The notes beneath the pieces were generated by a model. The model made no database searches. It was not told where the DNA came from and saw only the letters and a program-made list of their open reading frames with translations. From the IMG/VR virus record IMGVR_UViG_3300035208_002851, positions 36,979-100,978 of that record: a stretch of 64,000 nucleotides of DNA; one strand, 5' to 3'. Origin of the DNA: a virus. Taxonomy: Duplodnaviria > Caudoviricetes. Positions 10,267 through 64,000 of this stretch are shown one piece after another. The translations under genes were made by a program, and so were the position numbers. Each line of letters starts with the position of its first letter. Within the stretch, counting starts at the first letter, position 1.

Positions 10267-10797
10267 CTAAGCACCTCCCTTTTCGTACTTTGTAACTAAA
10301 GTATCTCCATAAGCCATAAATAATGGCGGTCTTGTAGTTAAATCATCTGTTCTTCTCCATTGAATATTATACATAAATGTTGACTCTCCAGTCGTTGAAC
10401 TTGTATCAAAATCTGTAGAATTGAAATCTACAGGGTTAAAATTTTCTGTTGGAAAATTAATGTAACTTCCACTCCGAAGGATCCTCTCAACTTCTTTCCT
10501 CATTTTATATATTGCATTTTTTGCCCAACCTATACTTGAATTGGAATCTTGATTTGGTCTAACTATGATTTGTAGACCTAAAGTTTGTGTATCCTCATAA
10601 GTTGCTATACCAGCACCGAAGTCTATTGGAGGTGATGCATTTCCAGATTTAGGTATAACTATGATTTGCGGAAACGCAATACTTGAGTCATAAAATCTTG
10701 AACCCAATTTAACATTTCCATTATTTATAGATAAATCTCCTGTTAAATTCCAGTTATTTTTTATAAGTTGCATCACAGTTATAACTAAATCTACCAT
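10267..10797 (-). CDS. Tail terminator/completion protein (paralog 2)
   Basis: Directly upstream of the tail tube; clear paralog of 13448-13927. Confidence 0.5.
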   Translation of the reverse strand: MVDLVITVMQLIKNNWNLTGDLSINNGNVKLGSRFYDSSIAFPQIIVIPKSGNASPPIDFGAGIATYEDTQTLGLQIIVRPNQDSNSSIGWAKNAIYKMRKEVERILRSGSYINFPTENFNPVDFNSTDFDTSSTTGESTFMYNIQWRRTDDLTTRPPLFMAYGDTLVTKYEKGGA

Positions 10798-10811
10798 TAT
10801 TAAATTTCCCC

Positions 10812-13451
10812 TTAAAATATAGAGGTAAAACTACCAGTAAATATATTTCCAGCAGTTCTAGAGTAGTAATTTGTAAAATCTCCATTAAATATAACAGGTC
10901 GCATAATATAAGCATTACCTACCGTGTGTGAACCTAAAATAAAACCATTTATGGCAGTTGGTGAACTTACAAAGGATTGTAATGATAAGCCGTCAAAAGA
11001 TGCCTTTTCAATATTACCGTCATTATCTATAAAATTAACCGAATCACTATAAGTAAACATTTCAACATTACTAAATGTTGCACCAACTATTGAACCATTT
11101 TGTGGTATTCTAATCCCAGAACCAGTGCCAAATAACCTTATAATAATATTTCTTGCATTTGTACCGCCATTTGATGTAGAAGGAAAATCCATACCAATAG
11201 ATGGATTATTAATATAAATATTATCTAAAATTGCATGACCAGTACTGGCAACGGAATTTGCAATTTGAATACCTATATTCACAGAGTTCATTTTTATGTT
11301 GGTTATTTCTGTTTGATAAGCATCTAAAATTTGAATACCAGAATTTGTTTTATTTGTACCATCAATTTGGAACCCAGAAATTTTTGATCCATTATAAGAA
11401 AGGAAGCTTGTAGGAGATGTCACTGTAAACGCAAAAATACTACCAGTTGGAACTATTTTTACTCCATCACTTAATAATGTAAGTTGTTTATCAGTAATAG
11501 TTATAGTCGAACTTATACTCCAATTTTCATTATTGTTTTTAACATATATTGTAGAACCAGAAGGAGCTGCAACAATTGCCTGATTAATAACACTTGCAAT
11601 ATCAGTAAAAGTAGAAAAATCTGCCTTTCCAGTTAAACCATTTTTAGCATAGTATATTAAATTATCTCTATATATTAAATATGAATAAGGTTCTGCTTCT
11701 GGTAATAAATAATCATAATCATCAACAAGAAACGTTTTTAATTTATTATAATTACCAATATCAATAACTTTTGTAAACAAATTCGTGTGACTTGAGTGTT
11801 CTTCAATCATGTCAAATGGCTGCACAAATCCAGTAGATGATGTATATAAAACAGTACCATCTGTGTCAAGGCTTGCACGTGTTGTTAATCCATACCTATT
11901 ACTACCAGATGCAAATGTTTCAAATTTAGTTTGGAAAAGAATTGAATTCCGTAGTTGAAATTCACCAGAAGAAACCTCCATTGCAATTCCCGCAGCATTA
12001 TCGGAATTTACCCAAAATGTAAGTTCTTCCCATAACCCATGTCCAACAGAAGAATTTCCCGGTAAATATATTCCACAACTATTTACATTATGAATATCCA
12101 TATATATACGACTTAAATTAGTATTATCAAATGAATAATGTATTAAAGGAAATGGTATAAATGTTATAGTTTTAGTACAATATACACTGTAAACATCATG
12201 TATATATGTGTGTTCTGTCCAACAATTGTCTGCCGAAGTATTTTCTAACGCAATACCTCTATCCAAACCATAAACATGTAGCATGCCAACTTCATTTCCA
12301 AGCCCATTTCTAATTAAAATACCATGATTAGTTCCGTGTACAAATTCTTTACCGCTTCCACTAATACTTAAATTTAATATATGGTTTTGTACCGATGCCA
12401 TCCATGTTGATCCCAAAAGTTTAATAGTATAATCTCCATCTGTTTGATTAACAAAATTAACACCATCAGTTACAAAGGTAAGTCTTGTTTTATCTTGAAT
12501 AAGTATTGGCGATGTAATAGGAACATCTTTACCATCTGATTTTACAAAAATTATACTACCTGTAATTGGGGAACCTAAAATTGCAGCATTTATTACCGAA
12601 GAGGCATTTGTACCATCTATACTCCCAGCACTACCCGATCCTCCATAATCTATTTCTCCGTTTTTACCATTTTCCGCCCAATAATAACCACTACCAGAAT
12701 AAATAAGATATGTTACATCTTTTAACAATCCATGAGAAAAAAGAAAGTTAGAACCACTAATTACTCCTATAGAATTAATATTAGTTATATTTGCATTTGG
12801 GCCATAAAAATTAGAACCAGATATTAAACTTCCTGTTATATTATCCGCTATAATATTTTCAATTAAACTTAATGGTCCTCGAAAAAGACTTCCGGAAATT
12901 AAATTACTTCCAGTTATATTATTTGCTATGATATTTGTAATTACAGCAATGGGTCCATAAAAGGCACTTCCAGAAACAAAAATACTACCAGTAATTTCAG
13001 ACGCTGTAATACTTTCACGTAAATATATAGTACCAGAATTCATATTAATTTCTGTTGATAAAACTCCTTCTTCATAATATGTTATTTTTCCCGCTTCAAA
13101 ATCCATAATTGTACAAGTAGCTCCACCATTTGGAGTATAAGTTATTGTTGTTGCTCCATCTTCAAGTATTAAAGCAGTTTGATCTGGAACACTAATAGAA
13201 CCTGTACCATAATTACCTGGTTTAATATGTAAATTGCCAGTACCTATAGAATTAATAGCTAATTGAATTAATCCAATACCATTACTTCCAGATGAACCCA
13301 AAATAGTTCCATTGGTTCCACTTAACATATCATAACTACCAGAACTGTTTTGCACAACAATTCTTGTAGCTGTTTTATTTAATGCATGATCCATCATCTG
13401 ATTAAATCTTATAGCATTCATTTGTGGTGGTATTGTAAAACTTTCACTCAT
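10812..13451 (-). CDS. Tailspike/fibre-like protein with two tandem beta-helix modules
   Basis: Twice-repeated YLIY...Y.A.NG..G..D...ASVIN.AI...P.GS.I.VK header, each followed by G/I/N-rich beta-helix sequence. Confidence 0.6.
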   Translation of the reverse strand: MSESFTIPPQMNAIRFNQMMDHALNKTATRIVVQNSSGSYDMLSGTNGTILGSSGSNGIGLIQLAINSIGTGNLHIKPGNYGTGSISVPDQTALILEDGATTITYTPNGGATCTIMDFEAGKITYYEEGVLSTEINMNSGTIYLRESITASEITGSIFVSGSAFYGPIAVITNIIANNITGSNLISGSLFRGPLSLIENIIADNITGSLISGSNFYGPNANITNINSIGVISGSNFLFSHGLLKDVTYLIYSGSGYYWAENGKNGEIDYGGSGSAGSIDGTNASSVINAAILGSPITGSIIFVKSDGKDVPITSPILIQDKTRLTFVTDGVNFVNQTDGDYTIKLLGSTWMASVQNHILNLSISGSGKEFVHGTNHGILIRNGLGNEVGMLHVYGLDRGIALENTSADNCWTEHTYIHDVYSVYCTKTITFIPFPLIHYSFDNTNLSRIYMDIHNVNSCGIYLPGNSSVGHGLWEELTFWVNSDNAAGIAMEVSSGEFQLRNSILFQTKFETFASGSNRYGLTTRASLDTDGTVLYTSSTGFVQPFDMIEEHSSHTNLFTKVIDIGNYNKLKTFLVDDYDYLLPEAEPYSYLIYRDNLIYYAKNGLTGKADFSTFTDIASVINQAIVAAPSGSTIYVKNNNENWSISSTITITDKQLTLLSDGVKIVPTGSIFAFTVTSPTSFLSYNGSKISGFQIDGTNKTNSGIQILDAYQTEITNIKMNSVNIGIQIANSVASTGHAILDNIYINNPSIGMDFPSTSNGGTNARNIIIRLFGTGSGIRIPQNGSIVGATFSNVEMFTYSDSVNFIDNDGNIEKASFDGLSLQSFVSSPTAINGFILGSHTVGNAYIMRPVIFNGDFTNYYSRTAGNIFTGSFTSIF

Positions 13452-23139: not shown

Positions 23140-25113
23140 CTAATTCAAATTTTCTTTTTTTGAGACCATACCATCAAAGTTTTTTCGTACTTCATTAAAA
23201 CAAGCAGTTTTAAAGAGCTGATATGGTTCTATATCTGTTTCATTGAATTCTAAAGTGTCGGGTTTATTTTTTAATAAGTATGAGGACAACGCATATTTAT
23301 CTATAGACTCTTTAGATGCCCTAAAAAGATCGGTTTTAACGTCTTTTACGAGCATTGCGTCATTTTGAAGCTCAAATTTAGCTTTCTGAGTCAAACCTAT
23401 TAAAGATTCTCTAAATTGTTCGTCTAATTGTAAAAGTTCAATTTTTTTTGCCTTTATCTCTTCCATCTTCATATTACTCTCCGGTGGAGTTTTTGACTGT
23501 TCAGTTATTCTTTTAACATCTGGTTGAGTTTTTTCTTTTTCTACTGGCTGTTCTTCCTCTGTTTGAGGAACACCCTTTGAAAATCCAACAGGTTCAGCTT
23601 TTTCAAGCTTATCATATTTGGCTTCTGGAATTCTATTGAATCCCATTTCTGAACGGCATTCATTTACGCTTATAGCACCTGCTTGTAGCAACTGTATAAG
23701 GCGCTGTGAACGCATATTTTTATCTTCTTCAATAATTGGTTTCCAAATTATACTTGCATTTTCAACGTCTTCGCCAAATTCTTCTGTTATGAGGGGTCTG
23801 AAAATGAATTCTTCTATTGAATCGGCAATAAACTCTTGTAGAACTTGTAACTTTGCAATAAAATCATGAAGTATAACTTCGGCCCCGCCCTTAGAACCCT
23901 TATCTGCTTTGCCCATAAGAATGGGTGGTACACCTAAAGATTGGTATCTTCGTAGAAGTAGATAATTCAACCACCAATCTAGGTTTAGATCGGAGGCAAT
24001 TGTTTGCATTTCCTCAAACTCAACGTCTCCCTTTGTAAAAATCATGGTTGCAGCAGTTCTACTTTTTAAGGTAGACATTAAATCTCCCATTTGGGCGGTT
24101 GTATAAGGCTTCTCCATAGAACCTCCTTTAACAATTAGGGGAGGAACTGCTCTGCTGTGAACCCATGTTGCTGCATCATTCTCAAACTGGAGCAATAAAT
24201 CATTATTTTTCAAAATGGGCATCAAAAGACTGGTGCCATACGCAGATTCATATCCCCAACTTGCGGGGCGATTTCTAATATGTATACAAGATTCGTTATC
24301 TATGAGTACTGGAGGGAAAGCCATCCATTGTATAAACCCATATTGATTACCAAAAGAGTCTCTGCGAACACGCATATAGAGGGGGTCTAAATCTTTTAGT
24401 GCAATAATTGTTTTAGCTTTTCCACTTTTTTTAACGGATTTAGCTATAAAATTCTTATTATTTACCTCGTTTTCTCCCTTATATACAGCTTTTTGCACCT
24501 TTTTAAGTGGTATATCAAGAGATTCTAAATCATCCTTTGTATAATTTTCTCCTTGATATTCATAAATTTGTTCTTTATTTTCTTCTACTTCATCCCATTG
24601 GAGTTCAGTGAAACTGTTACCATAAACTAGGGCATCTGTAGCCATTACAGGTAGATGTTGAGGTAGATTGATTCTGTCACATAGTTTTACTATAAATTTT
24701 GTTACTTTTTTATCTTTATGATAAATTGTGAACCCTTTACCAACAGCAAGGTTAACTTGCATCTGAACTGCATCTTGTACATCTGGTTGAGAACGATAAA
24801 TTTTGCGGTATTGAGGAAGATCAGCGAGAGGGTTGACACCGTAAATTTTAGTATAGATATCTGCATAAGGAGACTGTACAAGTCCATATCCGCTACCAGG
24901 AGGTAAAGATTTATCTCCTGTTCCAAGACCCCTTAAAAGTTTTATTGACGGTTGTTCTTGCCAAGTAGGTGGGACATCAATATCATATTCATCTCTCATA
25001 GATTTTGGAACAAGGCGGGCCTGAATCTCTTTATACGTTTTCATAGATCCATCCCATTCTTTCCTCGCTCCATATCTATACCATGGAGGCCTTTTTTCCT
25101 CTTTAGAACTCAT
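23140..25113 (-). CDS. Portal protein
   Basis: DALVYGN, LDP..M, YG.S.L, LGVPP..MG, G.IS.NE.R. Confidence 0.85.
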   Translation of the reverse strand: MSSKEEKRPPWYRYGARKEWDGSMKTYKEIQARLVPKSMRDEYDIDVPPTWQEQPSIKLLRGLGTGDKSLPPGSGYGLVQSPYADIYTKIYGVNPLADLPQYRKIYRSQPDVQDAVQMQVNLAVGKGFTIYHKDKKVTKFIVKLCDRINLPQHLPVMATDALVYGNSFTELQWDEVEENKEQIYEYQGENYTKDDLESLDIPLKKVQKAVYKGENEVNNKNFIAKSVKKSGKAKTIIALKDLDPLYMRVRRDSFGNQYGFIQWMAFPPVLIDNESCIHIRNRPASWGYESAYGTSLLMPILKNNDLLLQFENDAATWVHSRAVPPLIVKGGSMEKPYTTAQMGDLMSTLKSRTAATMIFTKGDVEFEEMQTIASDLNLDWWLNYLLLRRYQSLGVPPILMGKADKGSKGGAEVILHDFIAKLQVLQEFIADSIEEFIFRPLITEEFGEDVENASIIWKPIIEEDKNMRSQRLIQLLQAGAISVNECRSEMGFNRIPEAKYDKLEKAEPVGFSKGVPQTEEEQPVEKEKTQPDVKRITEQSKTPPESNMKMEEIKAKKIELLQLDEQFRESLIGLTQKAKFELQNDAMLVKDVKTDLFRASKESIDKYALSSYLLKNKPDTLEFNETDIEPYQLFKTACFNEVRKNFDGMVSKKENLN

Positions 25114-26015: not shown

Positions 26016-27491
26016 CTACCATATAGGCATACCTTCAGTCATACCCTCTCTATCCTTGTTTAACTTTGCAAAAACGCTGTCACTTCTCATTACAATCATT
26101 GGTTCACATGCAGTATATTCAAATTCTTTGTAAACTGCAAGGGTTGCCGCCCATACCATGTCGTCCATACCAGCGGTTTCTTTACCACTGTAGCGGGTGT
26201 GTAAACCAAATTTTGTAGATGTTCTTTGGATACCATGCAACTGTTTTTCGAATTTTTCGGCTATTTCAGCAACAAATTTATCGGGGGAGTCCTTAGAAGG
26301 TATAGCAAATTTCTTTCTTTGCATCAACATTCGCATGCGGATGATGATGTTTTCTTTGACGTTTGCTGTCAAATCAAAGGGTTGGATGAGGTTTCCGCAA
26401 TTTTCTTCTTTGCTAAGTATATCTTCTAAGACATCTCCCCCCGGTCCACTGGCATCTATCTTTATTAAAGTTGGGTTATATTCATTTTTTAGGGATTTAA
26501 TGATGTCTACTTGTTCATCGTAATGTATTCCAGGCATTATTTCAATATGAATAGTCTTAAAGTTTTCTGGAGCAACTTCTTCTACAACGTAGACTATTGT
26601 TTCTGAAGTTGTTCTACCGAAGTCTATACCAAAATAAATGGGATTCCTTGTTTTATAACCTGAGGAGATGAATTCTTTTATTGTTTGGCAGCCATTTATG
26701 AGTTCGTATGGGAAGAAAGCGAGGGATTCATCAACGAATCCACAGCAATATTCTTGTTCAAAGTCGATATCGGTCATTCCCTCTCGTAGAAATTTCTCTT
26801 GTTTAGCAAGACGAGGACATTCGGTAAAGTGTATATGATGATAACTCCAGGTTGTTTTGGTTTTTGGTGATAATCCTAGATAAACTGACATGAGGGGTTC
26901 TACAACTTCATAGTATTTACCTCGTTTACCGTAAGGGGTACTGTTCATGGTGATGTGACCTCCGATGATTTGGAAGTCACGTACAACAATCCATAATTCT
27001 TTGTCGTTGGCAACATGTGCATATTCGTCAAGATAGACATCTGTTTCGGGCCCTCTCATACCGAAGCCACGGATGTTGCCTGGGTCGCTGGAAGGTAGAC
27101 TCATAATACGGGATCCGTTGCTTAGTCTTGCTACTTGGACGCTGTGTTTACTGAAGGCAGGTTGTAGACTTCTTGGAATTGTGGAAAAAAGGTCGTACCA
27201 TTTACCCAAAAGTTCTTCAGCAATACGTTGACCTGTAGATACAAAGATAATTTGTCTACCGGGCATGGTGAAACTCTTATAGATACTTTCGCCTGCGATG
27301 GTTGTGGAGATGCCTGTTTTTTTAGATTTATTAATGGCACGATTACGGGAGGTGTCGCGGACGAGATGTTTCTGATAAGGATCCATATCCCAGTCAATCA
27401 TACCTTCGGGGGATTCTAGCTTTATGAAGGCTTCTATGAAGTTGACGGGATCTAGAAACATCATTAAAGCATTATCATCAGAGATATCCAT
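26016..27491 (-). CDS. terL: Terminase large subunit
   Basis: PYQ, KSKKTGIS (variant Walker A), YLDEYAH, STPYG, EQEY, GIDFG, DDMVWA; likely start 27491 (TAATG overlap). Confidence 0.9.
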   Translation of the reverse strand: MDISDDNALMMFLDPVNFIEAFIKLESPEGMIDWDMDPYQKHLVRDTSRNRAINKSKKTGISTTIAGESIYKSFTMPGRQIIFVSTGQRIAEELLGKWYDLFSTIPRSLQPAFSKHSVQVARLSNGSRIMSLPSSDPGNIRGFGMRGPETDVYLDEYAHVANDKELWIVVRDFQIIGGHITMNSTPYGKRGKYYEVVEPLMSVYLGLSPKTKTTWSYHHIHFTECPRLAKQEKFLREGMTDIDFEQEYCCGFVDESLAFFPYELINGCQTIKEFISSGYKTRNPIYFGIDFGRTTSETIVYVVEEVAPENFKTIHIEIMPGIHYDEQVDIIKSLKNEYNPTLIKIDASGPGGDVLEDILSKEENCGNLIQPFDLTANVKENIIIRMRMLMQRKKFAIPSKDSPDKFVAEIAEKFEKQLHGIQRTSTKFGLHTRYSGKETAGMDDMVWAATLAVYKEFEYTACEPMIVMRSDSVFAKLNKDREGMTEGMPIW

Positions 27492-29029
27492 TAAGTTTCT
27501 AACCAACCACGCCATGAACCATAACAAACTGTATTTGCATTTGACGCGTCTGCTATAACACTACCAACAACATCACATGTTGTGGGAATCCTTACTGGAG
27601 CTTTAAAATCAAAGTCATTTGCTTCATCTTGTAATGTTATTTCAAACCATGGTTGAAAATAAGATATTTTTGTTAAAGTTGTATCATTAAAGTTTGCACG
27701 CATTGTAAACGTTGAAAAGTGACCAGCTGCTATGGCTGCGGACGAAATATGGACTTCATCTATATAAAGTGTGGAACCAGAAGGTACAGTATAAATTAAG
27801 GAACGTCCTCTAGTTTGACCAGCAACAAGACTTCTATAAATATTGGAATTTGTTGAGCCAGTTAAGTTTATGGTACCAGCAGCTTTTAATAAAGTACCTA
27901 CTGTAATGGGTCTTATACTATTGACTCTATAAATATCTGTCGCTGTTGTTGGAACTGGTGTAACACCATTTAGTGTCATTACTTCAGTTTTAGAAACGTA
28001 ATTTTGGTCTAAATATGTAATTGTGAGTGTTCTTATTCCAGAACCTGTAGAATGATCTAATGGACTTGATGATTGAAGGATCATAGAACCTGTGGTTGTT
28101 GGAAAAACATATTTTCCACCAGTGTTCCATATATCTTGTTCTGCATTAATCACTGTGCTAACGTTTCCCAATTTAGTAAATCCAGAATGACCAGTAATAT
28201 TACCTTCAACTATGTCATAAAGATAAGGCATTGAGGAAACTCTGAGTTTAGAATCTGCTAAACGTAAGGCAGAACCAGTAGAATCCGTAAGATAAACTGA
28301 ACCTGTTATAGCTGCTGAGCCTGTTACTGCTAATGTAACTGTAGAACCAGTAAGGCGTACACCAGAAACGTTTGTAACATTATCTAAATCTCCACCAACT
28401 TGAACGGCACCAGCAGGAGAAACTTTGACATCAACATATGTACCGCCACCAACGGTGGTTTTGCCGGAAATAACGGCTTTTACAGGTTGAATGGTGGTTG
28501 TGTCTACAAGGGTGGTCCCCAACGGGAAGGCAATGCCGCTTTTGTCAGTTTTATATAAAATTGTTTGTAATCTGAATATTGTTTGGGGTGTAGCATCGTT
28601 TGTGTACCTCATTCTGATAAAGGTTGCTCTTGGAGAACCAACATAAAATGAACCGGTATTTATCATAGAACTATTAATTGTAAACATCATGGTTCTATCA
28701 ATAGATACACTATCCATGGAATGATCAAAATATAAGGTACCTGTTTTATCGGTTCTTATTAAAATACAGGTTGAGGCATAATCGCTTGCGTTAAACCAGC
28801 TGCCTGTTATGGATTCGTTTGCTTTTAAAAGTACGGAACCGGTCCATGATGAGGATTCTAGAACTAGGCCATCGTCTGAACCAACAACATAAGTGACTGG
28901 TGCACCGCTGCTACCAGTGACACGTTCCCATTTATTAGTTATGGAATCAAAATATTTTTGGTAGGCTGTTTGACCAGCTTTAACGTTGTTTCCGGTTAAG
29001 GTAGAATTTTCAAAAACAGATTCGGTCAT
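27491..29029 (-). CDS. Putative virion structural protein
   Basis: [ST]GS-rich, beta-rich; FIRMRYTN...Q..FRLQT and YTVP.G.T motifs typical of phage virion proteins. Confidence 0.5.
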   Translation of the reverse strand: MTESVFENSTLTGNNVKAGQTAYQKYFDSITNKWERVTGSSGAPVTYVVGSDDGLVLESSSWTGSVLLKANESITGSWFNASDYASTCILIRTDKTGTLYFDHSMDSVSIDRTMMFTINSSMINTGSFYVGSPRATFIRMRYTNDATPQTIFRLQTILYKTDKSGIAFPLGTTLVDTTTIQPVKAVISGKTTVGGGTYVDVKVSPAGAVQVGGDLDNVTNVSGVRLTGSTVTLAVTGSAAITGSVYLTDSTGSALRLADSKLRVSSMPYLYDIVEGNITGHSGFTKLGNVSTVINAEQDIWNTGGKYVFPTTTGSMILQSSSPLDHSTGSGIRTLTITYLDQNYVSKTEVMTLNGVTPVPTTATDIYRVNSIRPITVGTLLKAAGTINLTGSTNSNIYRSLVAGQTRGRSLIYTVPSGSTLYIDEVHISSAAIAAGHFSTFTMRANFNDTTLTKISYFQPWFEITLQDEANDFDFKAPVRIPTTCDVVGSVIADASNANTVCYGSWRGWLET

Positions 29030-29464: not shown

Positions 29465-29752
29465 GATAAATCACTTTTTGGGTGGGTCCCCACAAGGAGC
29501 CAGGTTCAGATAGGTGTAATATCTGAACCTCAGAGTTTAAACACCACTGCTCGCAAACTTCTTGCGGTTGTAAGGGGTGCAAAAGTAGGAACCGTGCAAA
29601 CAAAAGTGAGACAGAGGTACGCTAAAAGTTAGCCTGGCCGGGTTAACTTAGAGGTTGACTTGGTAACGCTTTGCTTGTAGTTAGGGTATACGGATGCTCT
29701 TTTACTGGACCCATAAAGAGAAGTATCAATGGAGATATATAAAGATTGTGGA

Positions 29753-30793
29753 TTATAGAGAGTCTAAGATGTTTTTTACAATCGCGGCTTGAGCCATTAG
29801 AACAGCATATTCTGTTCTTAATTGTGTTAAATCTATTTGAGGAGGACAAGGTTGATTGTGAGCTGCAACGTGGGCATCAAGTAATTCTTGGGTTTCGAAA
29901 GTTAGGTTGTCACCATATGGGCAGGTATATGTACTTGATGGAAGTACTTCGTTTACGAGTTTATAGAATGCTGGTAGCGGGGTGTAACCATTGAAAATGT
30001 TGTAGGATTCTCCTGAGGAATCTGGTTGGCTAGCCCAACAGAAGATAGCATCTACATTATTGGTTTTTGCCCAGTTTACAAATGATTCAACGTAGGCTGC
30101 TTGCTCTGCTGTATCTGAATTGGTTTTACCAAATTCGGTAAACCAGACTTCTTTACCTGCATCGTGGGCGCTTGATATCACGGCAAGCATCTTTGCTTGA
30201 GTAGTACCGTAAACGCTTGTGTTGGGACTTCTGGGATCCCAGTAGGAATTTCTAGAGATGAAATCAGAAGCGGTATCTATGGAAGAGGAATAGTGACCTG
30301 TGGTTGGTGAGTATCCGCACATGAAACGTACTGAAAGTGGAACAGTGGTAACAGATTTTGCAGCAGCTATGACATCTAAAATGAATTGATTTTCACTTGT
30401 AGATGCCGTACGTGCCTGAGGCTCATTGAGAACCATAAATCTATAGACGTTTGAACTTGAGAAGGATGATATAACATTTTTTACGTAGGTTATATATTTG
30501 GTTCTATTAGATGAGGAATTAGAAGCGGAGTCTCGGAAGTAGGTATCCCAGGTGGTGTACCAGGTATGGAGGTCGATACAGACTTTGATATTTAATGCGG
30601 AGGCAGCAGTTATGATCTCTTTAGATTTAGTAATACCGGAGCTGGTACCGGATTGAAATTCATTCATCGTGTTAAGGCGAAGTATAACAGCTGGAGCTCC
30701 TTGGGTTTTAAGGAGCTGTAGGAAGGTAGATACTTCACTGGAAGTCATATTATAAAAATTTAGGAGTTCAGTTGAAACGATTTTTGTGGTCAT
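29753..30793 (-). CDS. Clan-A (GH5-like) glycoside hydrolase with C-terminal Zn-finger-like motif and coiled coil
   Basis: IDLH, VLNEP (acid/base), FTEFG (nucleophile), IFCW. Confidence 0.7.
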   Translation of the reverse strand: MTTKIVSTELLNFYNMTSSEVSTFLQLLKTQGAPAVILRLNTMNEFQSGTSSGITKSKEIITAASALNIKVCIDLHTWYTTWDTYFRDSASNSSSNRTKYITYVKNVISSFSSSNVYRFMVLNEPQARTASTSENQFILDVIAAAKSVTTVPLSVRFMCGYSPTTGHYSSSIDTASDFISRNSYWDPRSPNTSVYGTTQAKMLAVISSAHDAGKEVWFTEFGKTNSDTAEQAAYVESFVNWAKTNNVDAIFCWASQPDSSGESYNIFNGYTPLPAFYKLVNEVLPSSTYTCPYGDNLTFETQELLDAHVAAHNQPCPPQIDLTQLRTEYAVLMAQAAIVKNILDSL

Positions 30794-30987
30794 ATCATAT
30801 CACTTTATCAAAGGACCGTGACCGTATTAAAAGAGGGAGTCAAGTTTTTGGGGAGTTGGAGGAGGGGTCCATTGGGACTCAAAGTAGTGACCGCAGTCTT
30901 GACATTGCCATCGTTGTTTACGTCCGCCTCTGGCAAGAATCTTGTAGCCGCATTTAACGGTATGGGTGGAACTACATTTGGGACAAT

Positions 30988-31657
30988 TCATAGGGATTTC
31001 TCCAATATATCATTCATTTCACATTTAACGGTTATTAGGGCAGTCGCATTTTTATTCCAGGTAACTGGTTGTGTAGGCATTTGAAATCCTGGTACTGGTA
31101 TATAGAAACTTGTGGCATTATTACATTTTTTACAGATGAAATGACCTTGATAATGGTATACAGGCTGTAATGATTTACAACAACTACAATAGGTTTTTGT
31201 AACTCTATCCCACCATGGATCTACTGGATTAAGTTTGATTGTTTCTACTTTTTGTCCGCCCTTCTTTAACATTTTAGACTCTCCTTGGGTTTGGGTTTCC
31301 ATTGACGGGGTTTCTTGGTGATTTTAGGATGGGCTTGATTATAGTAATAACAACGACAGTAACCCATTTCGTCGCCTGCACCTTTAAAGGTGGGAAGATT
31401 GAGGCAGTAGATTTTATGCCATGAGGATTCTACTTTGGCGTCGCATTGCTCATAGTCGGGACAAGTGGTTCCACTCATAGAAGCATCGCCACTGAAAGCA
31501 GACCGAAAAAGCCAGATCCGCAGAAAAACCCAACCCCAATTGGGGCTGCTGTGTTGTAGACTTTGGAGGCTTGGAAGTAGATGTTGGATATTAGTAGAAA
31601 TACTATTGCAAGTATTCCGAAGATTATAAATCCTGTTATGTTCATTTTTATCAACAC
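30988..31657 (-). CDS. Three small overlapping ORFs (two Cys-rich, one two-TM membrane protein)
   Basis: ORFs 30988-31302, 31266-31478 and 31475-31657, collinear with the late operon. Confidence 0.45.
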
Positions 31658-32076
31658 GTACTTACGTCTTCTTGGATGTATATATACATTTTGGATTGGA
31701 ATAAAGTAGTTAGAAGACTTTTCTACATGGTCAGAATTTGAATAGTTTCAAAAAATTGGACATTTTTCATATGGAATATATTTTTTATCGTAAGACTCAA
31801 GACATGCGCAATCAGATATGGCGACGTATCGTAAGACTTAAGACTTGAATCTCACGACACATGCCTCATATCTTATCTATCACGACTACATACTCTTTAC
31901 TATCTGTCGTCTCACGATGTACTACTCAGCACTGCATGTCGTCTTACGAAGCACGATAGTTTATATACTGTTTCACACAATTTCCCAAAACTCACTATAT
32001 ATACTCTTTCTAAAAGCTTATAAAGCTTCGCAGACAATACGATACTCATAAGAACACATCTCGAATGTGATAAAGA

Positions 32077-32664
32077 ATGAGCAACAACACAAAAAAGAAA
32101 TCAGAAAACAAAGCTTTAATCGCAAAGCTTCAAGAAGAGTCAAAGACAAAAACAGTTAGTGAAGTAGCACAGCAAGCTTCGCAAACTACACAAGCTGTCA
32201 AAGTCAGAGACGTAAAAGACTTTGTCGTCAAAAAGTCAAACGTCGAACTCGACGCAGACAAACGACAAGTCATCAAAGAGCGTCGTTCTTACATGCTTTC
32301 AGCAGTCGATGACACTTCAAGCGAAGTCTACAATGCTACAATGTATCATGACGCAAACAACAACTTAGTTCTCTTCTCTCAGCAAATCGCAAACAAAGCT
32401 GTAGCTGACTACATCTCAAAGCTCGCATCGATGCAAAAATTCAACGCTCAAAACATCATGAGCTTATTGCATACATGCGGCGGTGCGTACGGTGACAAAG
32501 TTCGCAATGCACTCTTTGCGATCAGTATGCAAACAACTGCAAGCGAAATCGAAGCTGACATTAACTCAGTCGTCGCTAAAGCTAAAGAGAAAAACAAGCA
32601 GTGCATCTACTTCAACATCTTAGAAGATTCTCGACGCGCAAAATACGACTTCATCAAAATCTAA
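32077..32664 (+). CDS. Hypothetical protein (no Pro or Trp; CC/GG-free island)
   Basis: 195-aa ORF, first + strand gene after the strand switch; T-rich tract after the stop. Confidence 0.7.
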   Translation: MSNNTKKKSENKALIAKLQEESKTKTVSEVAQQASQTTQAVKVRDVKDFVVKKSNVELDADKRQVIKERRSYMLSAVDDTSSEVYNATMYHDANNNLVLFSQQIANKAVADYISKLASMQKFNAQNIMSLLHTCGGAYGDKVRNALFAISMQTTASEIEADINSVVAKAKEKNKQCIYFNILEDSRRAKYDFIKI

Positions 32665-32744
32665 GCTTCGCTCTCTCTCTTTTTTTCTTTATAAAGTCAA
32701 GCATTCACTACTTGACGTAAAAGCAAAAAAAGAACGTGAAAAAC

Positions 32745-32954
32745 ATGAACACATTAGAAAAAACAGCTAATAAAGCGCAAAAACAGCGCAAAGAAATTCA
32801 AAAAGACTTAGAAATGATTGATAACGCATTCTATCTTAGTGATACATCTCTCGCAATCAAGTACGCTAACAGTGTTATAGAACGTTCTCAAAAAATGCTC
32901 TCTCTGATTCAAGAATGCGACAAACTCATGCAAGACGTACACTTTGCACACTAA
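32745..32954 (+). CDS. Small helical hypothetical protein (island)
   Basis: GTGA before ATG; no Pro, Gly or Trp. Confidence 0.6.
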   Translation: MNTLEKTANKAQKQRKEIQKDLEMIDNAFYLSDTSLAIKYANSVIERSQKMLSLIQECDKLMQDVHFAH

Positions 32955-33030
32955 TCTCTTTTTTTTATTTCAAATAGCACTCAGCTTCTCGCTCTGTGCT
33001 TGAAAATAAACTTAAAAGAGTTGCACAACT

Positions 33031-33138
33031 ATGACTGAAGAAAAACAAGAATGTAAAACATGCAAATACAAACACTGCGCTATAGTGTGCGCATCATGCG
33101 AAGTTTTCAAAAAAACACGAAATGCGAGTGCATACTAA
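33031..33138 (+). CDS. 35-aa Cys-rich peptide (island, not in ORF track)
   Basis: MTEEKQECKTCKYKHCAIVCASCEVF. Confidence 0.5.
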   Translation: MTEEKQECKTCKYKHCAIVCASCEVFKKTRNASAY

Positions 33139-33405
33139 ATGCAATCAAACTCTGCAATCTGCAAAGAAGTGCAGCAAAAACTCTCAGATATTCGCATGCT
33201 CTCACAAATCATAGACTCTGAGCATGACGCAATCTTTGACAAAAACACAACTTTGCTCATAAGCGACAGAAAAGTCTCTCGAAACGAAATCATAGCTTGC
33301 ATAGATAAACAAGAATTTCTCATAAAAACTTTACAACTTGAAGTTACACTTCAAGTCGAACTCAAAGAGCTGTACAAAAATGACAAAACTCTACACATCT
33401 ATTAA
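33139..33405 (+). CDS. Small helical hypothetical protein (island)
   Basis: Abuts the previous ORF; no Pro, Gly or Trp. Confidence 0.55.
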   Translation: MQSNSAICKEVQQKLSDIRMLSQIIDSEHDAIFDKNTTLLISDRKVSRNEIIACIDKQEFLIKTLQLEVTLQVELKELYKNDKTLHIY

Positions 33406-33880
33406 AAATCTTCTAAGATTCTTCTTAGAGATTCAATCTATAAACTTTCAGTTTGAAATACTTGATCAGTGCATCTCTGAAGAAAAAGCAGAGTGAAACT
33501 ATCAAAGTTTTCTTTCAGCACTTCGAGTACCGTATCGTACGACTCAAGCCTTGCATCTCACGATGCCTTACTCACTCTCAAGTCTTGAATCTTACGACTT
33601 GAGCCTTACTACTCAACCGATCCTCATTCCCTTAAGATGCTCCGCAAGCCACGTTTTACAACCTTGCCTTTCCTTGCTCCGCGGAAGCTTCTATGGATTT
33701 CTCAGCAAAGTTTACACCACAGTTTCACCCACACCTTATGAGAATCTACCGTAGCTTCGCAAAGGCTCGGTAAGGAGGGGCCCAACCCTTTTTTTAAAAC
33801 TCCAATCCTAATCAAATCCTAACCCACAGCAATCTATATATAATCCTTTTGTATAGTGTCTCTTAAAAGAACGTGAAACT

Positions 33881-34144
33881 ATGACGACAAAAAAATTAAG
33901 TAAAAAAACAACGGCTGAATTTTTAAAGCTTCTTTCAGACGTTAATGCCTCTGTAATTATAGCAGAAGCAGTAGCATTCGGCCTTGATAATCATAAAGAC
34001 GCAATCGAGTCAGGCTTAGACGACAATGAAATCGGGCCTATAGAAATACAGAAAGTCTGTGAAGATTTCATAACTCTATGTCGCTACGGCAAAACAACAC
34101 AACAATGGCTTAAACAAAACAAGGTTAAAAAAGCCTTCACTTAA
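33881..34144 (+). CDS. Hypothetical protein
   Basis: Preceded by the cassette promoter (TATATAATCC) and GTGA. Confidence 0.6.
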   Translation: MTTKKLSKKTTAEFLKLLSDVNASVIIAEAVAFGLDNHKDAIESGLDDNEIGPIEIQKVCEDFITLCRYGKTTQQWLKQNKVKKAFT

Positions 34145-34859
34145 TTTTTTTTCTTATATAATCCTCCTTTCCTTACCTTGCTCCGCGACCAACAGAACAG
34201 CTTATATGCTCCTTTTCAGCACTTCAAGTATAAGTCGTGAAACTATGCAAATGAGAATTAAACGTAAAAACCGTTGCTCAAAATTTGACGCAAGAGTTCA
34301 AGAATCAGAACTTGCGGAAAACTGTGAAAAGTGCATCAAAGTAAACGGAAAATGCCTTATTATTCAAAACGAAACAACTGAGTTAAGTGGAGGATTCATG
34401 CCTGAATCGGGTGCTGGAAATACAGGAGAACAACACATTTGAGTTCCACCACTCGCACTATAGTTCCCAAAAAGAAGCAAATCGACCTCACAAGAAGCTA
34501 CTCCGGGGGAGCCCTCTTCTACCGTCCCTCAGGCGAGGTGAAGAAACTATGACTCTCAAGCAGAAGCTTCGCCTTTTTACAAAACATCGATAACGATCCA
34601 AACTTCTATATACTCTCTATGAGCCTTGTTTCTCAATCGTGAATCGTAAGATTTGCCTCTTAAACTTTGTAAGGCTGAAAGCTGCCGAACCTTGTGCCGT
34701 TCCTATCCTCTTAAGACCTTCTGTAGATACCCCACAAGGAATCTACAGTTTGTTTTGCCTATAAAATCTCCTTGAGAAATCTACAGCAGCTTCCCAACCT
34801 TTCCTAGCTTCGCATCTTGCAAGATTTAAGGCAAGGCTTCGCAGTTGTGTAAACAGAGG

Positions 34860-35300
34860 CCCAACCCATTTTTTTGGTGTTGGATTAGGATTAAATCCCT
34901 AAGGCTTTGAAGAGAAGATCGGCGGTAGCTTTACTGAAACTTGGAATTTCTTTTTGTTGCTTACGGTAGTCTTCTATTAGGTCTATAAGTTCTTGCGGTA
35001 GATACACTGAAACTGTTTTTTGCGTGTTTACACCTCTCTATTACTCTATGAGTCTAATAGACTTTTAAGGGTTTTGGTCAAAAAACAGCAAAAGTCTATT
35101 AGAATATGAGGATTTGTGCTTCCAGAGGGGGAAAAGGAGCTGGAAATGAGCTTGGATTGGAGTGGAAATAGGGATTTTTATAAATAAAAATGATAAAATA
35201 AGAGGGCCTATACATACTCTATATTACTACTACTTCTCCAGTAGTATATATAATAATAGTATATATAGTGTATAGGTGTATAGTGTGTAGAATCCTAAGC
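34860..35300. other. Non-coding region with inverted repeats and an AT-rich tract; candidate replication origin
   Basis: Perfect 14-bp IR TCTAATAGACTTTT (35053-35066)/AAAAGTCTATTAGA (35090-35103); TA-rich quasi-palindrome 35205-35285. Confidence 0.35.
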
Positions 35301-35531
35301 TAAGAAAACCATCAACAAACGTTAAATTAAGTCTTAACAACCAAACCAAGCTCTTTTAGGGATAATTGAAATCTATAAATAAATGGCTCTTTTTTAGACA
35401 CATCCATTTTGAAAGTAAGGAGAAACAAGGAGAAAAGTAAGGCTGGAACACCTAAACTGTACATCCACGTACACTTCTGTTCACTCATGTACATTTCTGT
35501 ACATCCATGTTCATTTTATTACTATTATCCT

Positions 35532-38500
35532 TTACTCCAGCTTATCCGAAGAATACAACCCATAAAGAAACACCAGCACCGCGACCGCAAAGCAAGCTAC
35601 CGCAGGCCAAAACAACCCAAACCAATCCCTCTTTAACAAGATTGCTCCAACACTAATAAGTGTCATAGATGTCACCATAAGAACCCCAACCTTAATCCAA
35701 GCCCACAGCAACCTATTCGTAGCTCCTTCCCTCAACCATACCCAAAATCCCATCTTTCAGCCCTCCCCCAAAATCTCTTTCAACTCATCATAAGAACCGC
35801 ACTTACAATGATAGTATCCGCTGCAATGCCCCACCAAAGCACTTCTCGCCTCATTAACCTGCTTTATCGCAGTTGTACCCTGGCTTTTCTCTTGGCACTT
35901 CCTGCACTCCTCAAACCATTTGCCCAAAATTACATCAATCTCCGTTTGTACATCTTCTACCTTAATCCACCCCTGTCTCTGAAACTCCTCCCACTCCACA
36001 TCCTCCTTAGTCCTCTCCGCTGTTCTCGGAATAGCCTTCTCCTTAGCCGCCAACTCCCCCTTAATTTCATTAGTTGTTTTCGCCTTGCTTTTCCAACTCA
36101 TGTTTTCACCACATACCTCACCGTGAAGCAAACATCCACTGGATGTTCTACAAGCTGCGGATAAAGATCCTCCCAATCCTGTTTAAAGAACTCCCTGTAA
36201 AACTGTCCCTTCCCTCTCAGCTTATTCAAGCAATAGTGCAACAGCAAAAACGAATCCCAATTTCCGAAAGCCTTAAACAGCTTCACCCTCTTGTAAGAGT
36301 TGTCTACCTTCAAAAGAATCTCCGTGTTATTCCAAAAGCATCTATACCACGGCAGTTTTCTTTCTTCCAGAATCGTTATCTTCATCTTTCAGTCACACTC
36401 TATGAGTATCACAACTCATAAGGACTACTTAAAGCTTTGCTACGCTGCTACGGCCAAAATACACAAATACTCCAAGCAAACTATTCCTCCCAAAGTGCCT
36501 AACGCACAGCAGAACCAAATCAGCTCCCAATCAGTACCTGCGATGTTTCTATCATACCAACCCTGCCTCTTTCTCCCCAGCTCCATACCCCTTTGTAGAA
36601 CCTCCCCACATCTCTCACAAGTGAAACTATCCTTTCCTTTCCATTTTTCATCAAAAGGTTACACCTCATGCCCTAACCAAAAACAAAGCTTTCTTCTAAA
36701 GTTTAGACCTTTCATCTTTACTCGACCTTCCGTATCTACCGCCCTCTAACCATCCATGCCATGAAAGACTTAATCGAGAACCAACATGGTATAGTTATGC
36801 GGGTCTCGGCTACTTCCAGTCTATTTAGAACTACGGCGGATGCGTTCCTTCGTGCACTCCGCGTAATCATCCTACCTCAAGAGCTCCTCAAGTTCTACCT
36901 CAGCTCGTTTCACTTCACTTCGCCTCCCTCAACTTCCTCAATTTTTTCTCAAGGAAGAACTTCGACCAAACATAACAGCGTATCTCCGCGAACCATCCAT
37001 CGCATTTTTCTTCCCTATAGATACATCTGCTAAATTGACAGCCTTTAATTTTCATTCAGTTTCACTCTCTATAAGTTTTACACGCAAACGGCTTACTTAA
37101 AGCTATCGCGACGCACAGGACTACTTTTTGTGGGGTGTGTTGCAATACTGGGTTCTTGTTGTTTCTACCTGTTTTTGTTGGCAGCGTCCCCAAACACCTT
37201 GTTTTGGCTTCTTCCAATCTTTACATTCTTCACATGACACTATCTTGCTTCCTACTATCTCCCCTATTTTCTGCGCATCCTTTCTAAAGGACTTCATTAT
37301 TTGCTCCGCTTCCTGCTCTGCTTCCTCTTTAGTAGGCAAGAAATACTGATCGCACTTTAAGTGACCCTTCGGGCACTTCTTCTCCTTTCCACCGCACTTC
37401 AAGCAAGTATTCCTCTCAATCTGATAGTACACCTCTAGAGCCCTTTCAAAAATCCTCCTTCGCTCCTCCGTTGGCGGTTTCTTCATTTCCTCCTCTAAAA
37501 ACCTTCCCTGTTCCTCAGTTAAAATTGGTATCGGTTTCGGTCTCATTAGACTGTAAGTCTCCCACTTATTGCGTGACGTTCAGCACACATACCATGAGTT
37601 TCAACGATATCTTTTTCCCAATCATTAATCATTCGTAATGTATCGGTAAGAGTTGCGTTCTTTGGCAGTTTAGAAAGGCGGTAAGTTAGGTTAGTTTCTA
37701 CTTTGCAGTATGGACAAATTTGAGATACGCATGGTTCTTCGGGAATTGGCTTACCATCAATCGGACTTAGAAACTGCAAGTCACACGCTATGTCCTCGAC
37801 TTCGTCCTCTAACAGCTTGATCTTTTTCTGCCGTTTCTCCTTCTCCTCATTCTCCAGAACCACCTTCACCTCATAATCAATCTCCTTTCCCCCTCTGAAA
37901 ACGTGAATGTCCGACACATTCTTGAGTATATACAAGTCATGTATCATACTCTTGACCTCCTCAAGATCCTCCTCTTTCTCAAATTGCCTCAAGATAAAAG
38001 CCCTCTCCGGAGCATGTGAACAGTACACTATCGCAAACGAAAAATTCTCCTTAGCATCCTTAAAAATCGAGTTTCGCTTAGAAGTATAATCCTCTAAGTC
38101 TCTTTCTAACCAATTTACGCTTGTCTGAATGTAACTCATATTTTTGCACACTCTAAAGAGTTCTACAGCAGCGGCTTATAAAAAGCTTTGCTGACACAAC
38201 GGTTTTATAAAAAGGTAGAGTTTTCACCAACTACCAATATAATCTGGGTCACAAAGTTTTACCATTCCACATTTACAACACTCATATTTAAACTTATTTT
38301 CTATTACTTTAAATCTTCCGTGTTTCTTAACAACATCAACTTCCCCTATATAATGGTAACAATGAAAAATATGCATCTTATCACCTCACAACCCCACTTC
38401 CTTGAAGAACGTCACCGCATCCCAATCCTTGAGAATCTCGTAACTACCGCTAATCTCCTTATCCTCCATAAGGATACCACCCACACTCTTTTTGTATCTA

Positions 38501-63827: not shown

Positions 63828-64000
63828 TTTTAAGGGCCCACCCCTTTTTTATGGAGTTGGATTTTGTGCAATTTGAGCTTCTAATGGTTTTTCTTCAGCG
63901 GTTACTTTCTTTAGGACGTATAACTGTTGAAGCATAGTTCTCACAGCATCATCTTTATCTGTAGATTTTTCTAGTATTAATTGTATTGGTCTAAGTAGAC

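Follow-up and report, generated by a model that had tools for sequence, protein, structure and literature searches.

What can have emptied some 1.5 kb of a virus genome of a single dinucleotide step, CC/GG, and left that step at normal frequency elsewhere? The question is raised by IMG/VR record IMGVR_UViG_3300035208_002851 (Duplodnaviria; Caudoviricetes), here called G000, a single virus contig of 100,978 bp with a G+C content of 36.5%. The window analyzed was the last 64 kb of this contig (64,000 nucleotides), and coordinates are those of the window unless stated otherwise; a second genome, G001, and the L-numbered contigs are relatives. The depleted island lies a few kb from the gene for the large terminase subunit (TerL) and comprises the gene for a 195-aa protein, referred to as the anchor protein, three small genes and the non-coding DNA around them. 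A previous, sequence-only reading had described the island as free of CC and poor in GG, had placed it at a switch between late and early strands, and had attributed it to the purging, on both strands, of a target read by host defences. The strand switch was found as described, with the late operon running leftward and bounded at 31657, and the island and the genes beyond it running rightward.

Extent and Borders of the CC/GG Ban

The strict core of the island (31986–33529; 1543–1545 bp) contained no CC and three GG, at 32479, 32482 and 32491, with base counts of 331 C and 238 G. Mononucleotide shuffling of the core, repeated 2000 times, yielded 107 ± 8.5 CC+GG and never fewer than 80. The CC-free, GG-poor island of the sequence-only reading therefore withstood the composition-matched shuffle that had been proposed as its check, lying far below the shuffle minimum (3 vs. 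80), and the three GG are the same that had been assigned to the Gly codons of a C-G-G-A-Y-G motif. All other 1543-bp windows of the 100,978-bp genome held at least 77 CC+GG, making the island unique within the genome, and the second-longest CC-free gap in the window was 232 bp. When the ten double-strand dinucleotide steps were compared, CC/GG alone had outlying gaps, of 1039 and 494 bp against ~121 bp expected, and the gaps of the remaining nine were near expectation.

With the repeat cluster on its left included, the full depleted zone extended over 31775–33529 and contained 7 CC/GG against 124.5 expected. Its flanks were normal (37 vs. 38 and 32 vs. 28 expected), the ban stopped at the right border, and CC was frequent from 33530 onward. 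Outside the zone, the observed-to-expected ratio (o/e) of CC/GG was between 0.92 and 1.32 in all 6-kb bins.

Selection on Double-Stranded DNA

Several observations show at which level the ban acts. The non-coding DNA of the island (370 bases) had no CC/GG, with ~20 expected. Resampling of synonymous codons with the four proteins held fixed gave 34.8 ± 5.6 CC+GG (minimum 17), compared to the 3 observed. The left operator region, upstream of the TATA-like box, was depleted as well (2 CC/GG vs. 15.8 expected). CC and GG were avoided alike on the sense strand, which indicates a strand-symmetric reader of duplex DNA. Mutational decay is excluded because the island, at 36.9% G+C, matches the genome and is enriched in C (21.5%). 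The ban targets double-stranded DNA, not protein, and is held by purifying selection; the depletion at non-coding, synonymous and operator sites, together with that in the diverged relatives described below, bears out the two-strand purge suggested earlier.

The cost of the ban falls on the proteins of the module, which lose Pro, Trp and all non-essential Gly. The Pro- and Trp-free, Gly-poor composition reported for the four island proteins was recovered, with Pro+Gly+Trp amounting to 3 in 387 residues against ~44 expected. Exceptions tolerated in the zones were of two kinds only, the codons for Gly in the turn of the helix-turn-helix and a single CCC in front of a TATA-like box, the latter mostly 8–14 nt (up to ~25 nt) upstream of the box in the zones of relatives. 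Exceptions thus fall only where function needs them.

Relatives With and Without the Ban

The genome G001, whose TerL is 74% identical to that of G000, carried a zone of the same kind at its positions 104769–106126, with an anchor protein only 36–38% identical to that of G000. Seven further contigs bearing a homologue each had a zone of 1.1–1.85 kb, and the nine zones pooled (14.2 kb) gave a CC/GG o/e of 0.05. The ban was therefore kept although the anchor protein had diverged to 34–38% identity. A profile search of 1.8 billion proteins returned 52 members of the anchor family, 40 of which were free of Pro and Trp. The 23 near homologues were uniform in this respect, all lacking Pro and Trp and having Gly in the motif TCGGAYGDK only. 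Directly upstream of the anchor gene of one relative, a 208-aa gene was called that lies partly in the zone (L031 3–440 / L032 32–658).

One distant homologue, P0065 (E = 2.7e-15), had 10 Pro and 6 Gly. It is encoded on contig L037, with the same gene order as in G000 (TerL leftward, anchor gene rightward), a CC/GG o/e of 0.7–1.0 and no other dinucleotide banned; border sites of the TCGTAAGA type (see below) were not found in the 16.5 kb of this contig. Contig L038 encoded a homologue with a partly relaxed ban and kept the border sites. Because L037 has the protein fold and the gene order without the ban, neither of these requires it. The ban is a lineage trait, tied to something that varies from one lineage to another, be it a viral function or a factor of the host.

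Avoidance of GATC and CTAG

The zones were also poor in two tetranucleotides. In the pooled zones, GATC occurred 4 times (44 ± 7 expected; o/e 0.09) and CTAG 6 times (44 ± 7 expected; o/e 0.14), compared to o/e values of 0.37 and 0.39, respectively, in the rest of the genomes (243 kb). Other 4-bp palindromes in the zones were mostly near 1 (0.64–2.2), with TTAA and AATT low and CATG and TATA high. Over the whole of G000, the lowest 4-mers were CTAG, CCGG, GATC and GGCC (maximal-order o/e 0.29, 0.45, 0.52, and 0.55), all of which are typical restriction words, and AGATCT was absent where 9.4 were expected. Restriction systems that recognize these four words are probably present in the host lineage. 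Since GATC and CTAG were lower in the zones, the zone is hardened against words that the genome avoids only in part, and this co-depletion favours a defence-proofed early module. The ban-less contig L037 avoided CTAG, CCGG, GATC and GGCC more strongly across its 16.5 kb (o/e 0.18, 0.00, 0.16, and 0.28), which, for this one genome, is consistent with a safe zone being traded off against avoidance throughout the genome. The defence-hardening that the sequence-only reading had proposed is, to this extent, sustained by a defence-like signature, namely the GATC/CTAG depletion and small genes that vary as they do in anti-defence loci.

The Anchor Protein

The anchor protein consists of a basic low-complexity N-terminus, a small β-rich middle part and a C-terminal winged helix (residues ~98–195), and contains no Pro, no Trp and 3 Gly. 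The AlphaFold model had a mean pLDDT of 86.6. Residues 98–195 aligned to the winged helices of Zalpha, GntR, MarR, SSV1 F-112 and TFE with Z values of 5.1–7.7, and in a structure search independent of Foldseek, winged-helix domains made up most of the top 50 matches. The model has the three-helix bundle, the β wing and the conserved turn before the recognition helix. As modelled, residues 98–195 are a winged helix, an assignment of fold only at middling Z values. The conserved Gly residues lie in the turn that joins helix 2 to helix 3, before the recognition helix, and the first Gly of GGAYG was invariant among the 23 closest homologues.

Foldseek searches returned no significant match in the PDB (best E 0.27) or in BFVD (best E 0.037), and NCBIfam had no match for the anchor protein or for the methyltransferase considered below. 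The idea of a replication initiator was dropped, the RepE54 matches having a TM score of ~0.2. A homodimer prediction scored 0.00, which weighs neither way. Judging from the modelled fold, the anchor protein is probably the regulator of the module and not an evident anti-CRISPR protein (Acr). The clustering of half-sites at the borders suggests that the winged-helix protein would bind the border palindromes and so control the module and its neighbours.

Anatomy of the Module

The features of the module are listed in Table 1. The full border site was an imperfect palindrome, TCGTAAGAC-TYAA-GTCTCACGA. Genome-wide, 19 half-sites were found, about the number expected by chance, yet 9 of the 19 lie in the two border clusters, which are the only half-site clusters in the genome. 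Similar sites were present at almost every zone border located on a contig among the relatives. On the plus strand of the early region, a CCC followed by a TATA-like box occurred only at 31984 and at 33823, before the next gene; the arrangement was considered as a promoter of all early cassettes, and this was dropped because the pattern is confined to these two places and to the zones of relatives.

Table 1. Features of the CC/GG-depleted zone of G000 (window coordinates).
Feature	Position	Strand	Basis or remark
Whole CC/GG-depleted zone	31775–33529		7 CC/GG vs. 124.5 expected
Left border cluster, 5 operator-like half-sites (TCGTAAGA, TCTCACGA, TCTTACGA)	31786–31950		Repeat and motif search
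Promoter-like element: CCC, ~9 nt, CTATATATAC (CCC + TATATATA)	31984–32004	+	Repeat and pattern search
Anchor gene, 195 aa	32077–32664	+	Open reading frame, homologues, model
G-G-A-Y-G codons (preceding Cys codon 32475–32477)	32478–32492	+	Only three GG of the core
Intergenic spacer with T-tract (terminator-like) and TTTATAAA (TATA-like)	32665–32744	+	No CC/GG
Small gene, 69 aa (72 aa from GTG at 32736)	32745–32954	+	Predicted helical; no Pro, Gly or Trp
Small gene, 35 aa, Cys-rich CxxC...CxxxCxxC	33031–33138	+	Zinc-ribbon-like by inspection only
Small gene, 88 aa	33139–33405	+	No Pro, Gly or Trp
3' tail, 124 nt, non-coding	33406–33529	+	No CC/GG
Right border cluster, like half-sites (TCGTACGA, TCTCACGA, TCTTACGA)	33531–33610		Ban ends here

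T-tracts and TATA-like boxes separate the three small genes, and these vary between relatives, whereas the anchor gene was present in all of them. The 69-aa gene occurred in L028 and was absent from some relatives, the Cys-rich 35-aa gene was also found in L028 and L029, and the 88-aa gene had a counterpart of 93 aa in L029. Comparison of the island proteins with Pfam and PHROG gave no match, and no homologue of T5 A1, A2 or dmp was found. For the 88-aa protein there was no family or fold match, and an ESM Atlas search returned nothing of use (model pLDDT 0.48). An Rfam scan of 31000–34600 returned no family, and in a scan for sigma-70 promoters and terminators the promoters were no better than those of shuffled sequences. 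The anatomy is best explained by a self-contained early unit, consisting of border palindromes, one or more TATA-type promoters, a winged-helix gene and changing cargo.

Other repeated words were observed in and around the zone. The word AAGCTTCGC occurred three times in the zone (32023, 32174, and 32664) and again at 33745, and relatives share TATATAAAGCTTTGCTTCGAAA directly after the TATA box; these words may belong to the stretch transcribed first or have a regulatory role. Six HindIII sites (AAGCTT) lie in 1.5 kb of the zone. To the right of the zone in G001 (106207–106319 and 29–112; L022 / L017) a CC-rich unit of 24 nt, AATTTGCCTTGCCTTTGCCTAACC, was repeated in tandem 3–4 times, and the assembly of G001 breaks inside this array. 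In G000, CC-rich GCCTTGCC-like tracts precede the next early genes (33617–33683 and 34161–34193), contrasting with the CC-free zone.

The Virus and Its Genome

The first 145 nt of G000 recur at the end of the contig (contig positions 1–145 and 100835–100978; window 63857–64000) with 99.3% identity and one indel, so that G000 is a closed circular assembly of ~100.8 kb. The collection's own label for the record is "linear" and ~64% complete, despite this closure. Genes typical of tailed viruses were encoded on the minus strand (portal, 23140–25113; TerL, 26016–27527), and the genome also encoded a family-B DNA polymerase, a homologue of the small subunit of replication factor C (RFC) and AAA+ proteins. 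The RFC homologue was nearest to archaeal RFC small subunits in the ESM Atlas, with no particular lineage indicated, and TerL had only ~24% identity to that of any GenBank phage. We read the virus as an uncultured archaeal tailed virus. TerL was unusually long in two relatives, L025 (3410–5983; 857 aa) and L037 (1–610; >1192 aa); Hint/intein-splicing Pfam matches were obtained in one of the two, and both look intein-bearing.

Among GenBank phages, neither a megablast search with the region nor a tblastn search with the anchor protein gave a match. An IMG/VR scan with the anchor protein was likewise without a match, and one with TerL returned G001 and one short relative. A search with a glycosyltransferase, made in the hunt for a host, returned only the same virus family. 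One homologue lay on a 2.7-kb contig binned as "Candidatus Pacebacteria", a label that was set aside as probable mis-binning. Contigs from a landfill run (X1, 2018) and a groundwater run (X2, 2022), which belong to different studies, were identical over window positions 29500–36000 (6.5 kb), and the record may derive from either of them; run X4 contained diverged relatives at low depth. In runs X1, X2 and X4, one 100,864-bp contig spans the stretch, and neither ends of molecules nor a supported joint across the island were seen.

Possible Causes of the Ban

The best explanation, to which we give a probability of about 0.4, is that the module has been made untouchable by DNA-targeting factors that need CC/GG and short restriction words. 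A reader of the two-base step is needed because the removal of ~105 CC/GG far exceeds the handful of changes that would do away with CCGG, GGCC and sites like them. Such a reader of CC itself could be a CRISPR system with a CC-type protospacer-adjacent motif (PAM), used either for interference or for adaptation, or else an enzyme that cuts or nicks DNA at a 2–3-bp site, and ordinary restriction enzymes would be additional factors evaded, through GATC and CTAG. The module would have to act while the remaining genome is still unexposed, or before, or independently of, whatever shields it, and its variable small genes would likely be counter-defence cargo. The CCN PAM of type I-A is one candidate among several.

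A number of results weigh against this explanation. In the other 99 kb there was no depletion (o/e 1.06–1.11; over the window, CC 1.11 and GG 1.06), and the genome-wide under-representation of CC/GG expected for a PAM was not found; because CC/GG is normal there, the supposed reader must be harmless to the other 99 kb. The only conserved gene of the module is regulator-like, and among the cargo genes, compared with Pfam and PHROG, none was similar to known Acr or anti-restriction proteins. Within single genomes, the GATC+CTAG o/e of the zone (0.20–0.22) was hardly below that of some neighbouring bins, no clear gradient of these words away from the zone was seen, and the pooled contrast draws on related, non-independent genomes. 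Both full genomes, G000 and G001 (106,319 bp), assemble as circles, at the level of contigs only, and when species genomes were scanned, once with TerL and once with RFC, no relative from which a host could be named was returned.

The ban might instead be an escape from the virus's own DNA modification, with a short CC/GG word marked and one module that must stay unmarked for the sake of transcription, regulator binding, or invisibility to modification-dependent host nucleases at entry. Motif IV of the form SPP[YF] marks N4-cytosine methyltransferases, and a PF01555 DNA methyltransferase of 313–325 aa with SPPY at this place is conserved and intact in G000 as well as in G001 (G000 10666–11643, L033, outside the window; G001 34534–35472; nearest solved relative 2zie); we take the enzyme on this motif to be of the N4-cytosine type. 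The slight over-representation of CC/GG outside the zone (1.06–1.11) also agrees with a marked genome. However, motif I of the enzyme is atypical (GDxxxxPxCER, with no GxG), and searches of G000 for TGT/DpdA (PF01702), QueC (PF06508) and a C5-methyltransferase found none of these. It is hard to see why a methyl mark should require 1.5 kb of coding sequence to be purged, and the stronger purge of GATC and CTAG in the zone would be left unexplained, so that we regard self-modification as unlikely, though it is the foremost of the alternatives. Directly after the methyltransferase gene, and in the same frame, lies a Cys-rich zinc-finger gene. A physical or architectural need for a CC/GG-free duplex, in operator looping, packaging and ejection or origin function, would agree with the position of the zone a few kb from TerL and with the palindromes, resembling protein-binding sites, that flank it on both sides in nearly all relatives in which the contig includes the borders, and CC/GG is the step with the strongest A-form tendency. 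It nevertheless seems improbable, for L037 has the same gene order without the ban, the co-depletion of GATC and CTAG would go unexplained, and we know of no looping, origin or packaging element that demands a stretch longer than 1 kb without a given dinucleotide.

The reader might also act on RNA, the transcripts having to evade a dinucleotide-reading RNase or an RNA-modifying defence enzyme. Entire transcription units are purged, leaders and 3' tails included, and a Csx1-type RNase prefers CC. A defence enzyme that reads a dinucleotide in mRNA does exist, since CmdT ADP-ribosylates GA in mRNA (10.1101/2024.02.24.581662). Against such a reader speak the equal ban on CC and GG on the sense strand, the depletion of the operator region upstream of the TATA-like box, and the fact that GATC and CTAG are palindromic DNA words, which together leave it quite improbable. 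Least credible of all is an origin without selection on the word, by CC-specific deaminase decay, as a foreign segment, or through selection on the proteins to dispense with Gly, Pro and Trp. Pro and Trp are indeed missing from the proteins; but G+C content does not set the island apart from the genome, C is enriched there, its reading frames are undamaged, relatives with as little as 34% identity keep the ban, non-coding DNA and synonymous sites obey it, and P0065 is a homologue of normal composition.

What can be said of the agent is that a complete, sharply bounded dinucleotide ban, held through deep divergence at the cost of three amino acids, points to a strong selective agent acting on ~1.5 kb. 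The ban is far stronger than any motif avoidance that we found in print, and a full-text search of the literature returned no case in which a dinucleotide is banned locally and absolutely, to the point of altering the composition of proteins. The case brings together an archaeal virus family, an operator-bracketed winged-helix module, functional exceptions, co-depletion of GATC and CTAG and a ban-less relative. Going beyond the evasion of DNA-targeting factors as such, it is possible, if still doubtful, that the module reveals an undescribed factor which reads bare CC/GG on infecting double-stranded DNA, be it a nuclease or sensor of a defence system or a mark that the virus makes and such a nuclease or sensor reads, and that viruses of archaea and bacteria alike answer with a CC/GG-free "safe zone" in which the genes needed first, for control and counter-defence, are placed. 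If so, the operator-bracketed module and the ban-less relative would form a matched pair for finding the reader, and L037 (ban-less) and L038 (partly relaxed) offer a natural comparison for identifying it. Should the agent be a host defence, the zone would mark the genes that need protection first, and the small genes would be prime anti-defence candidates in archaeal viruses, for which, to our knowledge, few anti-defence genes are known. Should it be the virus's own DNA mark, the zone would show where that mark is harmful. In either case, the zone provides a simple flag, readable from sequence, for finding such modules in metagenomic viruses.

Comparison With Known Systems

The first-step-transfer (pre-early) DNA of phage T5, ~10 kb of terminal repeat, lacks EcoRI sites, and the leading end of phage T7, pulled in by transcription, carries gene 0.3. 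The module resembles the first-step-transfer DNA of T5/BF23 and the T7 leading end in being a short segment, presumed here to act first, that is free of nuclease words present elsewhere in the genome, the rest presumably being shielded in other ways, as seen in the contrasts between the zones and the rest (CC/GG 0.05 vs. 1.1, GATC 0.09 vs. 0.37, CTAG 0.14 vs. 0.39). It differs in that T5 avoids one 6-bp site, whereas here a 2-bp step is fully banned at the cost of three amino acids; the T5 segment is also terminal, whereas here only circular assemblies were obtained and there is no homology to A1, A2 or dmp.

In acr-aca operons, a conserved helix-turn-helix regulator binds inverted repeats at its own promoter. 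The module likewise combines a conserved gene of helix-turn-helix type with variable tiny genes and palindromic promoter sites. Unlike acr-aca operons, it showed no Aca or Acr similarity detectable with Pfam or PHROG, its regulator gene comes first, and operator clusters stand at both ends; we know of no acr locus for which avoidance of a dinucleotide has been reported. For anti-defence genes of archaea, early regulatory sequences are a subject of PMC11065993.

A repressor-type gene with accessory genes, set between operator clusters that face divergent units, is also reminiscent of the immunity region of phage lambda. There, cI-rexAB lies between the operators OL and OR. No homology to lambda was seen, however, a search for an integrase found none, no sign of lysogeny was seen, and lambda has no dinucleotide ban. 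Phages that carry 7-deazaguanine through DpdA differ from G000, which was without matches to TGT/DpdA (PF01702) and to preQ0 genes (PF06508).

The remaining comparison is with restriction-site avoidance and PAM depletion, in which short words read by defences are under-represented by selection, as CC/GG is here, CC being a known PAM. In Pseudomonas phages targeted by type I-F systems, the CC PAM is depleted genome-wide (PMC12174588). Published motif avoidance of this kind is mild and spread over the genome, whereas in the present virus family it is absolute, confined to 1.1–1.85 kb with sharp borders, and accompanied by an o/e of 1.1 elsewhere.

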